A stretch of DNA of 64,000 nucleotides, from the NCBI GenBank assembly GCA_964016885.1, contig OZ024741.1, positions 381,858,001 through 381,922,000 on the forward strand, in the 5' to 3' direction. The notes below the pieces were generated by a model that saw only the letters and a list, made by a program, of their open reading frames with translations, was not told where the DNA came from and searched no databases. Shown here piece by piece: positions 10,960 through 19,487 of this stretch. Source of the stretch: Eledone cirrhosa (Eukaryota). Every line of letters begins with the position of its first letter. Positions within the stretch are counted from its first letter, which is position 1. Made by a program: the position numbers and the translations under genes.

Positions 10960-11185
10960 CAATGTACATATGTACGTATGGATTATATCGAAAATTAATA
11001 ATAATGTTCCAGTCGTTGGTAAAGAAACGGCCCGATTAGAAGCCGTAAATCGCTCGGTATGCAAATGAGGCTACGCAGCCGATGTGTACTTTAGAAAATA
11101 CTATATATTTTCAACCGTTCAACAGACTGGCAGAGGTGTACAGTCCTGAAAGTTCCACAAAGCCAGTTTTGAACAAACAGGTGAC
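10960..11185 (+). mobile_element. Decayed relative of the 13439-13886 HHR unit
   Basis: 10965-11045 resembles 13520-13600. 11030-11135 resembles the reverse complement of 13695-13795. Contains ATGCAAAT at 11059. Confidence 0.55.
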
Positions 11186-11229
11186 ATATATATATATATA
11201 TATATATATATATATTTATTTATTTATTT

Positions 11230-12321
11230 AGGTTTGAAGGTTCACCACTGGATAGAGTTGGTCATTCCGTATGGTCAATCTTGCTGTAATAATAGGGAGA
11301 GTACTCAACGTAAAGCAGCTCAACCGTCTTCGTTTGTGTAGTTGGTGGTGCGAGTACGGAGTTAATTATTATAATAAAATAACAGGAGGTTGGACTTGTG
11401 TAAATCCTTGAAAAGTTTATTATACTATGATCATTTCAATGACCGTATTCCGTATGAATCCGGTGATATCATCAGGTATTCGAAATATAATAAATGAATG
11501 TAACAGATAAAATCCATGGGGCTGAAAAACATAGACCTGAGGGAGACCTACCATCTAGTATCTTCCACTTTAGCCGGTCGCTCTCAAGTGCTGGCTATTC
11601 GGTCTACTTAAGGCTATCTGGTGAGGGGGCGAAAGCTTATAGTGTGCTACTAACCTCCCGGTCAAAGAGAAGAAAAAAAAAGAGAAAAAAAGAAAGAAGA
11701 AAACTGAGCGTTAATGTCATGCTACAATCAGGCTAGGAATTGCCGCGAAAAATGTTATTCTTAAGAACCTATATCTTAACAGAGGTATATATTATAACAG
11801 AGGTATATATAATGGGCGTCTGCATGATATAATGTGAACAGAAAATTGGAACGTTAAATTTTTATTTAGATTTATAGGATGAAATTAAAAAAAATTAAAT
11901 TAAAGATTAAAATTATAAAATTAAAAAAAATTGAAAATTAAAAATTAAACAGTTTAAACAAATTTAAGGTTTGGGTTTCGAGATTTAGTTAAAGAATTTA
12001 CAGAGAGAGTCTTTTATGAACAAATTTTAAGCGTATTATAAAGATCCTCGATAAGTTTTCAGGGTGGGATATAGAGTAAAGATTAAGTCCTTCTTTAGCA
12101 GTCAAACAGCACGCGACGACTGCAGACTCCAGCCAGCCCATCTTAACCACGTGTCAGCCATTCCGAGTGAAACCGTCTAGCGAAAGATTAGGAAATCAAT
12201 TTTTCCGAGCACTCGAGGAATGCAACTGTTCTAGGCTTCGGGTGTGCTAGTTGGAAGTCAGCCATTGTCGTTAGGCCATAACGATGACCTAACGACAATG
12301 GCTGACTTCCAACTAGCACAC
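11230..12321 (-). mobile_element. 5'-truncated PLE remnant: GIY-YIG C-terminus, 3' UTR with HHR, 5' fold-back
   Basis: Minus strand near 11960-12040 reads like ..FIKDSL..KPNLN (PLE endonuclease end). HHR at 11422-11479. Perfect hairpin at 12242-12321. Confidence 0.55.
11422..11479 (-). ncRNA. Minimal hammerhead ribozyme with palindromic stem III
   Basis: Minus strand ATAC-CTGATGA-[extended stem II]-GAAA-TGATCA-TA-GTAT. Confidence 0.75.
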
Positions 12322-12463
12322 GGCGGGGGGGTCTGTGCCATGCTTATGAAGAAATAGAAGGCAATAAAATGAAGAAAATAAATAGAAAATAAATAAAAAA
12401 TAAAAATGAAGATTCAAATAAAAAAAATGTGTGTGTGCTATATATATATGCATTTAATATATT

Positions 12464-13113
12464 AAAAACCAGTATGACTCTAAAAACCGGTTTGTCTGTG
12501 TGTTTACATACAGAATAGCTGGATACTCACAGTAAAGTAACCAGTGAAAGACTTGGTACATCTACATATGTATACGTGTGTGTATTCATATGCATACTAG
12601 TATTTCAGTATGCATATGTAGATGTACATTTTTAACTTAATTGTTTAAGCGTCAGTCATACAAAAGTGAGTTACAAACGAAACGAAATTTAATTTCGTTT
12701 CGTTATTTGTTTTTATCGTCTCCGTTGAACCGGTACGTACTCACACTCTATGCAAATTAGTCTGCCCACTACTAATTTTCATAGAAAAAGCATATAACGA
12801 TATGTGCTTTTACGATTCTCCAGAAATGCCGGTAGATAGGTAAATATTGCTGATGAGTTGTAACAACAACGAAACTAGTTCAATATTCCTTGTCTGGCTT
12901 TCTGGAGAATAGAGGAAAGGTGTTTCCTCAAAAACCAGTATGACTCTAAAAACCGGTTTGTCTGTGTGTTTACATACAGAATAGCTGGATACTCACAGTA
13001 AAGTAACCAGTGAAAGACTTGGTACATCTACATATGTATACGTGTGTGTATTCATATGCATACTAGTATTTCAGTATGCATATGTAGATGTACATTTTTA
13101 ACTTAATTGTTTA
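12464..13113 (+). mobile_element. ORF-less retrozyme-like unit: 466-bp period, identical 184-bp direct terminal repeats, internal HHR
   Basis: 12464-12647 is identical to 12930-13113. HHR at 12843-12887, several internal hairpins, TA-rich flanks. Confidence 0.8.
12843..12887 (+). ncRNA. Type I hammerhead ribozyme, canonical core
   Basis: AATATTG-CTGATGA-GTTG-TAACAA-CAAC-GAAA-CTAG-TT-CAATATT. Stem I extends via ATTCTCCAGAAA/TTTCTGGAGAAT to 12815-12910. Confidence 0.92.
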
Positions 13114-13133
13114 TACATAATATATATATATAT

Positions 13134-13270
13134 GAAGGCGTGTGGCTGAGTGGTTAGAGAATTGGATTTTCAATCGTAAGGTTGTGAGTTCGATTCGTGG
13201 ACCAGGCGATGCGTTATGTCCTTGAGCAAGATACTTTATTTCACGTTGCTCCTTCTACCTGGAGTTGCGA
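13134..13270 (+). mobile_element. tRNA-derived CORE-type SINE
   Basis: A box TGGCTGAGTGG, B box GTTCGATTC, CORE-like TGTCCTTGAGCAAGATACTT. Degenerate relatives near 25930-26075 and 37765-37830. Confidence 0.75.
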
Positions 13271-13438
13271 CCGATAGATAGTATTAGCAATTCGAAAGAC
13301 CAACGGAAACATTGTTCCCTCGGTCCGATTTGACGAAAGTCGATCGTTCCTATAAAAATATATATATATATATATATAAATGGAAAAAATGAAACGAAAG
13401 TTCATTTCTCACTCACTCTTAGTACGGCTGTTACTTAA

Positions 13439-13886
13439 ATATAAGTATGTATACGTACATACATATATGTATACGGACGTACGGTAGTATATATATATAT
13501 ACATACATGCACACATACATATATGTACGTATGGATTTACCGAACATTTATTATAATGCTCGGTTTGTTTGTAAATAAACATCCCGAATTAAGCCGTAGT
13601 GTTTAGCAACCATCGTTGCCCTTTTGGTCAACACTGGCAAAGGAACAATGTACTAGTTTCAAGCTTATTATCTATCGTCAGCATCGTATATCTTCCTGCC
13701 AGATGATTGAACGTCTGAAAGTATATACTTTCATTATGCATATTAACGGCTGAGCAGCCCAATTTGCATTTCGAGTGAGTTAATCGGCCGGGCGCACCGA
13801 GACGATTTATGTGTGCATGTATGTATATATATACATACTACTGTACGTCTGTATACATATATGTATGTACGTATACATACTTATAT
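13439..13886 (-). mobile_element. ORF-less unit with about 79-bp inverted termini and internal HHR
   Basis: 13439-13518 is close to the reverse complement of 13808-13886. HHR at 13646-13686 (-), octamer at 13762-13769. Confidence 0.7.
13646..13686 (-). ncRNA. Minimal hammerhead ribozyme (weak stem II)
   Basis: Minus strand CGATG-CTGACGA-TAGATAATAAGCTT-GAAA-CTAG-TA-CATTG. Confidence 0.7.
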
Positions 13887-17930: not shown

Positions 17931-18213
17931 TGCTCAACATATGACTTATTATCTTCGTTTTTTCGTTCATTGCCAGAGAACGTCTCTATGCACCACCTAA
18001 GAGAACATTAGTCTACGACCTCTTTTATACCTAAACGTGGTTCTGTCTTTGCGCGTAATTGTTTTTCACCGCTCCTTTTAATGACGTATTATTCGTTTTT
18101 TCCCGTTCTTTGCCAGCGAATGTTTCCACGAACCAAAGTATCGTCTTCCTGTCTTCCTCCGGTTGCAACGTTTTTTGAAATATCAAGTTCTGCGTTTACA
18201 GATTGACTTTGTT

Positions 18214-18264
18214 AGTTTCAGAAGATCCCGTTAAGAGTGAAAGCAGCGATTCGTTGCTTAAACT
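18214..18264 (+). ncRNA. Hammerhead ribozyme variant (CAGAAGA core) in the inverted pseudo-LTR
   Basis: AGTTT-CAGAAGA-[stem II]-GAAA-GCAGCG-ATT-CGTTGC-TT-AAACT. Confidence 0.65.
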
Positions 18265-18984
18265 TTAATCTGTTATTTTAATAAATATTTACTCTACGGT
18301 TCTTATATATTTGATATATATTTATCCTTATCGAGCCCTCTTTGGATTTTAGTCTTCAATTTTATTATTATTACTATATATATATATATATATATATATA
18401 TATATATATATCACATTTTGAACTGCTTATCCTCAAGAACTATGCCTGTAAATAATATCATTCTTTCTTTCCTATTACCTTTTCTTGTTCCACATCAGCC
18501 CCCCCCCCCCATTTTTTTTCTTTTTCCTTTTTGCTTCAAAAACCTTGTTTGTAAATAATAATATTCTTTCTTTCCCATTTCCTTAACATTTTCAGCATCA
18601 CATTATTTTCTCTCCAGCATTTTATACCAATGCAAATTCACCCCTTTGATAATGCATAAAATGCTGAAGCCAGTAATAAACAATTATTAAATATATAAAT
18701 AAATAAATAAATGCCATTGTTAATTAATAAAAACATTAACTAATATCTTAACACTTCACACAAATTAAAATATTTTGTTTTAAACATTTTCTCACCCAGA
18801 AAAAAAAAATAAATAAAACGAAAAAAAAAATGTTTCTTCCTAATAATCGTATTTTCTCCCTATATTCATATATATATATACACACACACACACACACATA
18901 TATATATATATATATATATATATATATATATATATATATATATATATATATATATATATATATATATATATATATATATATAAT

Positions 18985-19122
18985 AGTTTATCCCGAGTAC
19001 AAATGCGCGTGACCACAGTAAGTAAGGTACTCAATACGAAGCAGAATATAAATATTTAATATAGAAAAGGCTTCTAGTGGACTAGAACTGTTTTATTCGG
19101 GAGAAATCATCATGTCTTCCTG
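18985..19122 (-). mobile_element. Diverged copy of the 7758-7890 HHR-bearing end
   Basis: Shares ACCACAGTAAGTAAGGTACTCAATAC..AGCAGA..TTTAATATAGA..GGACTAGAACTGTTT..AGAAATCATCA with 7783-7883. Ribozyme core is mutated. Confidence 0.75.
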
Positions 19123-19267
19123 ATATATATATATATGAATGTAATCTGAGTTTTACGAATATTAATAATAATATTCAATTCGTTTGCAGTTACGCAAACA
19201 GCCTCTTTTTTAAACCATGTCAGTAGAATGAGTTCCTCATTATTGCCCCTGCGTTGGCATGCAAACA

Positions 19268-19317
19268 GAACTGGAGACACTAAGGTTTCTGGGTATTACC
19301 CTTCATCAGTGCAGTTC
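19268..19317 (-). ncRNA. Type I hammerhead ribozyme
   Basis: Minus strand GAACTGCA-CTGATGA-AGGGT-AAT-ACCCA-GAAAC-CTTAGT-GTC-TCCAGTTC; 8-bp stem I with one mismatch, GUC site. Confidence 0.8.
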
Positions 19318-19392
19318 ACTGTTCACCTGTCATCTGTCAGACGTAGTGAAAATATATGATATGTTCTAAAATATACATGATTGATCGTCCCG

Positions 19393-19487
19393 ATTTGCAT
19401 ATTAGCAGACTGGCTGATCAGTCAGATTTGCATACGTGCAGATCCACTGATCAGCCATATTTGCATATCAGCAAACAGGCCAATCAG
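19393..19487 (-). promoter_or_regulatory. Three 33-bp tandem units, each with an octamer (ATTTGCAT), plus a CCAAT
   Basis: ATTTGCAT at 19393, 19426 and 19459; CCAATCAG at 19480. Function is inferred. Confidence 0.5.

Follow-up and report, generated by a model that had tools for sequence, protein, structure and literature searches.

A conserved octamer ahead of hammerhead ribozymes in a non-coding repeat family of Eledone cirrhosa, a candidate promoter of retrozyme-like elements

Why does the same eight-base word stand at a similar distance upstream of several hammerhead ribozymes in octopus DNA? We analysed a stretch of 64,000 nt from Eledone cirrhosa (assembly GCA_964016885.1, contig OZ024741.1, positions 381,858,001 to 381,922,000, forward strand), referred to here as the window, in which four units, A to D, carry ATGCAAAT, the octamer bound by POU factors, on the strand of a hammerhead or of its remains. 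A first-pass annotation had proposed that such units hold an internal POU promoter just upstream of the self-cleavage site. This is still the best reading, on altered grounds: its support is selective conservation of the octamer among homologues, not recurrence in unrelated units. Judging from sequence, we assign a probability of roughly 0.55 to the view that the octamer, shared by descent, is a POU-factor site, in DNA, of an internal polymerase II promoter.

The octamer and the hammerhead are one inherited association

The octamer lies at 11059-11066 (+) in unit A, 12750-12757 (+) in B, 13762-13769 (-) in C, and at 19393-19400, 19426-19433 and 19459-19466 (-) in D. The same-strand distance to the hammerhead core is 79 nt in A (to CTGAAAG at 11146), 92 in B, 80 in C and 83, 116 and 149 in D, so that all the octamer coordinates and gaps first reported (79, 92, 80 and 83 nt) were re-found. 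The chance of a same-strand octamer in a given 100-nt stretch is 0.8-1.3%. Sixteen octamers occur in the window against 6.7 expected; six are in units A to D, and the remaining 10 are within chance (standard deviation 2.6).

The units had been described as dissimilar, with two of the four related. This did not hold. Pairwise alignments with octamer and core left out were compared with 300 shuffles each, and A-C (z 9.7 and 14.9), A-D (12.8 and 8.5), B-C (7.8 and 7.8) and C-D (4.4) all scored above 300/300. The A-B and B-D pairs were not above shuffles (z <1), and B therefore joins the family through C, with which it aligns end to end at 61% (219 of 360 columns; nhmmer E 6e-10). Judged by these alignments, A to D represent divergent families of a single non-coding repeat that bears a hammerhead. 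Their homology indicates that octamer and hammerhead came together once, giving one inherited association rather than four; independent convergence in four units is ruled out by the homology outside octamer and core.

The monomers are short, 466 nt in B and ~429 nt in C, with repeats in the range 410-470 nt and a regional GC content of 0.36. Unit B (12464-13113, +) comprises 1.4 monomers with a period of 466 nt and one hammerhead in a chain of hairpins; 12464-12647 is repeated directly at 12930-13113 (184 nt, 100%), and the octamer lies within TATGCAAATTAG. Unit C (13376-13804, -) is a single circularly permuted monomer, with the octamer at 13769-13762 and the core CTGACGA at 13681-13675. Its head-to-tail continuity shows in 41 contigs, which extend beyond 13800 with letters resembling 13376-13400 of the window. 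An inverted partial C tail (13805-13893, +), matching 13440-13525 reversed, adjoins its 5' end. The D monomer spans 19135-19545 (-), within which a tandem array (19392-19488, -) holds 2.9 copies of a 33-nt unit (Tandem Repeats Finder period 33, 70% matches); each repeat consists of a perfect TATGCAAAT and a palindrome like GCTGATCAGC. Inverted tail copies lie upstream of D at 19540-19791 (+), 19138-19245 matching 19754-19647 at 90%. A CCAAT box at 19480-19484 (+) in D was set aside as separate support, as it aligns with the repeat palindrome and could be a CpG-decay variant of it.

The head of unit A (11040-11180, +) retains the octamer, a short palindrome, an AT-rich hairpin and the helix I arms, and stops at (AT)n. 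It is preceded by an inverted 3' tail of the family (10974-11045, -), a Penelope-like inverted arrangement, which matches the C tail at 61/76 (z 14.9) and the D tail with z 8.5. An inverted tail copy thus stands beside the head in A, C and D, and the units abut (TA)-rich tracts. A fifth member, H (60334-60603, +), heavily decayed, was found blind by homology (nhmmer E 8e-7). No open reading frame (ORF) of at least 90 aa was present in A, B or C; D has one chance-like stop-to-stop frame overlapping its repeats. Whole monomers fold as hairpin chains, with z -11.9 for B (12648-13113) and -6.7 for C. The window around them is AT-rich, and tracts of (AT)n and (AC)n abound in it, as do remnants of transposons.

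Hammerhead integrity

A bulge-aware scan of the window found six structured hammerheads, among them those of B (12850, +), C (13681, -) and D (19309, -). The type I hammerhead of B (12815-12910, +) is intact, with a CTGATGA core (12850-12856), a 5-bp helix II, GAAA and a 2-bp palindromic helix III (ACTAGT); its predicted cut follows GUU at 12880. Those of C and D contain decayed pairs, the cut being predicted after GUA at 13651 in C and, in D (core CTGATGA, 19309-19303), where helix III is decayed, after GUC at 19276. The B fold is better than its shuffles (z -4.3), and the C and D folds are not (z -0.65 and -0.17). Against Rfam HH9, B scored 38.6 bits (E 3e-6), below the 52-bit gathering score; the window gave no Rfam match at the gathering threshold, and the E-value list below it is mostly microsatellite microRNA noise. 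We classify B, C and D as type I hammerheads of the Penelope kind, with self-cleavage predicted from the motif. The CTGAAAG of A had been taken for a decayed CUGANGA core. The alignments place a deletion directly after CTGA (11146) that removes helix II, GAAA with helix III, and the cleavage site; unit A has ceased to be a ribozyme.

Two further hammerhead families occur in the window. The second, E (7750-7995), consists of two copies inverted head to head, whose cores lie at 7884 (-) and 7935 (+), with a shortened helix I and no octamer; a decayed copy lies near 19100 (-), within 18985-19116. The third, F/G, at 41030-41420 (-) and 27383-27637 (+), consists of copies 66% alike with a bulged T, a 6-bp helix II and no octamer upstream.

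The octamer looks constrained

In all four alignments examined, which have 107-120 ungapped columns of which 27-33% are invariant, the longest stretch of invariant columns ahead of the core is the octamer (permutation p 0.001, 0.0015, 0.006 and 0.003). The only other invariant runs of at least four letters are ATATA, a TATA-like word that in B follows the octamer at ~36 nt, and CTGA. Among the D repeats the octamer is invariant at 8/8 positions and the rest at 9/25 (36%; p 0.014). Perfect octamers repeated in this way form a pattern like that of homotypic factor clusters. The two longest runs identical between B and C, 9 nt each, are GAAACTAGT and ATGCAAATT, and the majority letter of C at 13770 yields TATGCAAAT, matching A, B and D. 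Given common descent, the octamer looks constrained.

Two sets of read data were considered in this connection. Among the 40 read-variant rows listed, of 191, none falls in the octamer, which neither supports nor refutes conservation among copies. Read ends at an AATT overlapping the C octamer (6526/7679) reflect a biased library cut site and were not taken as support.

A site in DNA or a stem in RNA

If the octamer is constrained, it could be read as DNA or kept for its place in an RNA stem. It forms, in B and C, the 5' arm of a hairpin whose 3' arm is a decayed reverse octamer, the mismatch falling inside the octamer at position 4 in B and position 6 in C. Among the 45 base pairs common to B and C, nine have changed on both sides, as compensating pairs, and eight on one. 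Unit A and the third D repeat do not form the octamer hairpin, and a hairpin common to all four units was rejected, the four-way RNAalifold consensus having no pairs. Since the partner arm differs, the mismatch shifts and two copies lack the hairpin, pairing alone cannot explain the invariance of the octamer. One arm fixed, the other free, and triplication in D point instead to a reading of the sequence itself, for which a POU factor on DNA is the simplest candidate.

Several observations weigh against a promoter. The pairing probabilities of the octamer in B and C are mostly 0.9-1.0. The TATA-like word is weak, one or two mismatches off consensus and at the centre of a palindrome. The association has a single origin and is known from four sequences, the permutation tests treat columns as independent, and B and C alone give nothing significant, 1.6 identical runs of at least 9 nt being expected. 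The octamer is AT-rich and free of CpG, and its decay may be slower than that of the flanking sequence; unit H has lost it by decay, together with the hammerhead core. Three of the six structured hammerheads in the window (7884-, 7935+ and 41368-) have no octamer within 200 nt upstream, although these may be truncated and of little information, because they belong to other families, in which the shared sequence starts just ~25-35 nt ahead of the core. The 64 kb contain no tandem with two hammerheads (B has 1.4 units and one hammerhead), and comparison with the Penelope-like element (PLE) remnants of the window revealed no sequence link between the units and an autonomous PLE. Finally, 44 of 46 hammerheads in a metagenome, described below, lack the exact octamer.

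The strongest rival, which we consider unlikely, is that selection on the octamer acts in the RNA, where it would be part of a stem that a Penelope-like reverse transcriptase (RT) or an RNA-binding protein of the host recognises, or that a circular RNA requires to fold, transcription being by read-through. Seven of the eight octamer bases are paired in the B hairpin, the two-hairpin stretch has z -6.5, the same hairpin occurs in C, and the monomer as a whole is a conserved chain of hairpins. Sequence reading within an A-form stem is uncommon. An RNA role would also leave invariance in one arm only, the triplication of the octamer in D without this hairpin, its absence from A and the third D repeat, and a four-way consensus without pairs to be accounted for. 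On the other side, an RT of this kind initiates within a stem-loop of its own RNA, according to the available text of PMC11167929, and metazoan retrozymes seem promoterless in that of PMC7761336.

A neutral leftover, one arm of an ancestral palindrome surviving by chance, is somewhat less probable still. A single ancestor for all units, the loss in H, the unremarkable B-C runs, the AT-rich, CpG-free composition and the assumption of column independence all suit it. It sits poorly with longest-run p values of 0.001-0.006 and three perfect copies in D; moreover, the longest run coincides exactly with a factor site known from textbooks, and the opposite arm has decayed differently in each family. 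The last alternative, that the units are truncated pseudo-long terminal repeats (pLTRs) or 3' ends of autonomous PLEs, with the octamer part of a pLTR promoter, has in its favour a hammerhead of PLE kind, several PLE remnants in the window and, as far as the sources go, the location of PLE promoters in pLTRs, and is improbable: B has a period of 466 nt with no ORF between repeats, C closes as a permuted monomer, no unit adjoins or matches a PLE remnant in the window, and in the available part of the PLE supplement of PMC8557442, on one strand and in text whose line breaks can hide matches, none of six ATGCAAAT matches was seen with a hammerhead core after it.

Other hammerhead loci

The generality of the octamer was assessed in a metagenome scan covering 23 of 64 parts, with a pattern that left the two middle octamer bases free and forced ATGNNAAT. 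Of 46 distinct structured hammerhead matches, two read ATGCAAAT. About 70 nt ahead of the core, the main family (41 motifs; L158, L130, L133 and others) carries a conserved block, ATGTAAAT or ATGTGAAT, and then the palindrome GGGATCCC. It never reads ATGCAAAT, and its ATGTAAAT/ATGTGAAT block was selected by the scan pattern. L158 has no Rfam match, and no PLE protein was found near the main family. On present evidence, as judged from these loci, the exact octamer is not a general feature of animal hammerheads.

A locus of a different family and from another organism, L188 (1387-1634), carries ATGCAAAT 78 nt upstream of the core and three exact upstream octamers in all. A perfect inverted octamer pair ~190 nt upstream, unforced by the pattern, resembles the B hairpin (score 45 versus 24 +/- 3.6 for shuffles). 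L188 is a single lead: in L178, its homologue, the corresponding word is ATGTCAAT and the flank is unrelated. A profile built from the window units found no relative among the metagenome loci (best E 0.03). In a viral control, the ATGNNAAT-core pattern had CA in 10/120 loci, with no enrichment; eight matches were unstructured, and 0/121 loci with inverted octamers had a hammerhead.

Copy number and marks of mobilisation

Read depth was taken from raw reads of four runs over 12440-13810; depth is not copy number. Over most of C it was ~8,000-20,000, similar to that of the neighbouring short interspersed element (SINE), and over B a few hundred to 1,100. Contigs from three organism codes cover both units. 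B and C are high-copy and dispersed. At 13647, 13671 and 13691 the majority letters improve helices I and II of C, which indicates that the window copy of C is a decayed one. The neighbouring SINE-like element is itself very high-copy and lies between B and C at 13134-13340; its tRNA-type head was judged by eye.

The units show Penelope-like marks: (TA)n targets, partial tandems, and permuted and inverted truncated copies. In the available text of PMC8557442, (TA)n targets and inverted truncated copies are described for Penelope-like insertions. We regard A to D as likely Penelope-mobilised, non-LTR retrozyme-like elements.

Penelope-like sequences occur at several places in the window. An RT at 5015-5872 has its best named relatives in Octopus bimaculoides and O. 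vulgaris, then in bivalves. A remnant with RT and GIY-YIG domains (15010-18291, -) has a CxC-x5-C linker as in the Hydra clade, as far as that clade's description was available, and is flanked by a 359-nt inverted repeat; a second copy lies at 50384-52017. No hammerhead was found in the 15010-18291 remnant.

How an internal promoter would serve the element

Under the promoter reading, the transcript would begin at a point downstream of the octamer but ahead of the ribozyme, perhaps close to where the long helix I starts, ~25-30 nt behind the centre of the weak TATA-like word. From a tandem copy the transcript would traverse two hammerheads, which, with their 2-bp palindromic helix III, would cut as a dimer and free a complete monomer bearing, in its 3' part, the next promoter. 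A Penelope-like RT/endonuclease would then copy the circularised monomer back into the genome. A start just before the first cut would suit such a circular intermediate, because the dimer frees a whole monomer with the promoter for the next round; this layout would let each daughter tandem be transcribed again. The single-hammerhead copies of the window would be dead ends that still bear the octamer site.

For the abundant transcription of animal retrozymes, the 2020 review PMC7761336, in its available text, invokes read-through in the absence of visible promoters. While the hairpins drift, the POU octamer keeps a fixed place and offers a single 8-base target for mutation. The depth of family C, comparable with that of a tRNA-type SINE, means that its octamer site could matter for host gene regulation; the earlier idea that these elements spread POU sites through the genome follows just loosely from that depth. 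A bolder proposal is that animal retrozymes as a class are driven by a POU-octamer promoter placed just before the hammerhead, either shared or re-invented all the way from octopus to newt, perhaps with L188 included, and that in this genome the elements seeded very many working POU sites. We think this doubtful; if true, retrozyme-borne POU sites would be a large source of new regulatory DNA.

Other elements in the window

A dispersed repeat of ~185 nt has at least nine copies (2984-3170, 21414-21561, 23016-23188, 36658-36844, 48636-48781, 49738-49855, 52018-52203 and 56116-56430). An apparently intact non-LTR retrotransposon (29356-34955, -) encodes a 714-aa ORF1 and, in a frame of 1195 aa, endonuclease, RT and zf-RVT domains. 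At 12242-12321, 21953-22588, 38305-38672, 54759-54855 and 56667-56787 there are long palindromes or inverted repeats. A Tc1-type transposase remnant (57086-58075, -) was recognised by Pfam, and a Helitron-like remnant (61100-64000, +) was judged from translation only.

Comparison with known systems

The element class, animal retrozymes, is already known; the octamer association in invertebrate retrozymes appears to be new. In our literature search, neither an octamer in hammerhead retroelements or invertebrate retrozymes, nor octopus retrozymes, nor this superfamily turned up, although supplements could hold such a report. The word 'octamer' does not occur in the available main text of Cervera and de la Pena 2020 (PMC7229834) or of the 2026 preprint by Li, Clavereau and Pollet (10.64898/2026.07.22.740005). 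As described there, metazoan non-LTR retrozymes resemble A to D in having short, self-paired monomers of low GC content that bear a type I hammerhead and encode no protein, in their multiple copies, in their more-than-unit and permuted insertions, and in co-occurring with PLEs. A to D differ from them in the conserved octamer upstream of the ribozyme (metazoan retrozymes seem to have no conserved motif either; PMC7761336, available text) and in lacking a two-hammerhead tandem in the window. An internal promoter has been reported for a plant retrozyme, in the text available.

PLE pLTR hammerheads likewise have a short palindromic helix III, and their cleavage is dimer-dependent (PMC4209133, available text). 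Together with PMC8557442, as far as both were available, this source describes further likenesses to the units: an extra base after position 9 (as in C), (TA)n targeting and inverted truncated copies. The units differ in having no ORF, and the Hydra-1_oBim hammerhead given in the available part of PMC8557442 is, by eye, unlike that of B, C or D. The promoter of Drosophila Penelope is described in the text available as internal, TATA-less and like that of long interspersed nuclear elements.

The spacing of the octamer here is nearer to that of H2B and immunoglobulin promoters than to that of the distal small nuclear RNA (snRNA) enhancer (~-220). No proximal sequence element was identified among the invariant runs of A to D, there being no mollusc consensus for comparison. 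The closest parallel is newt satellite 2. Coats, Zhang and Epstein are said to have placed the octamer, in 1994, among its promoter elements, with a start shortly before the cut. A to D differ in their mollusc host and in an octamer 79-92 nt from the core. Both are hammerhead-bearing animal repeats, and the available text of PMC2220036 cites an snRNA-type promoter as driving satellite 2. Such an internal promoter, for polymerase II, is reported in the newt and proposed in A to D. In A to D the octamer stands on the predicted transcribed strand, upstream of the ribozyme, and an octamer promoter there would tie the old newt result to the invertebrates.

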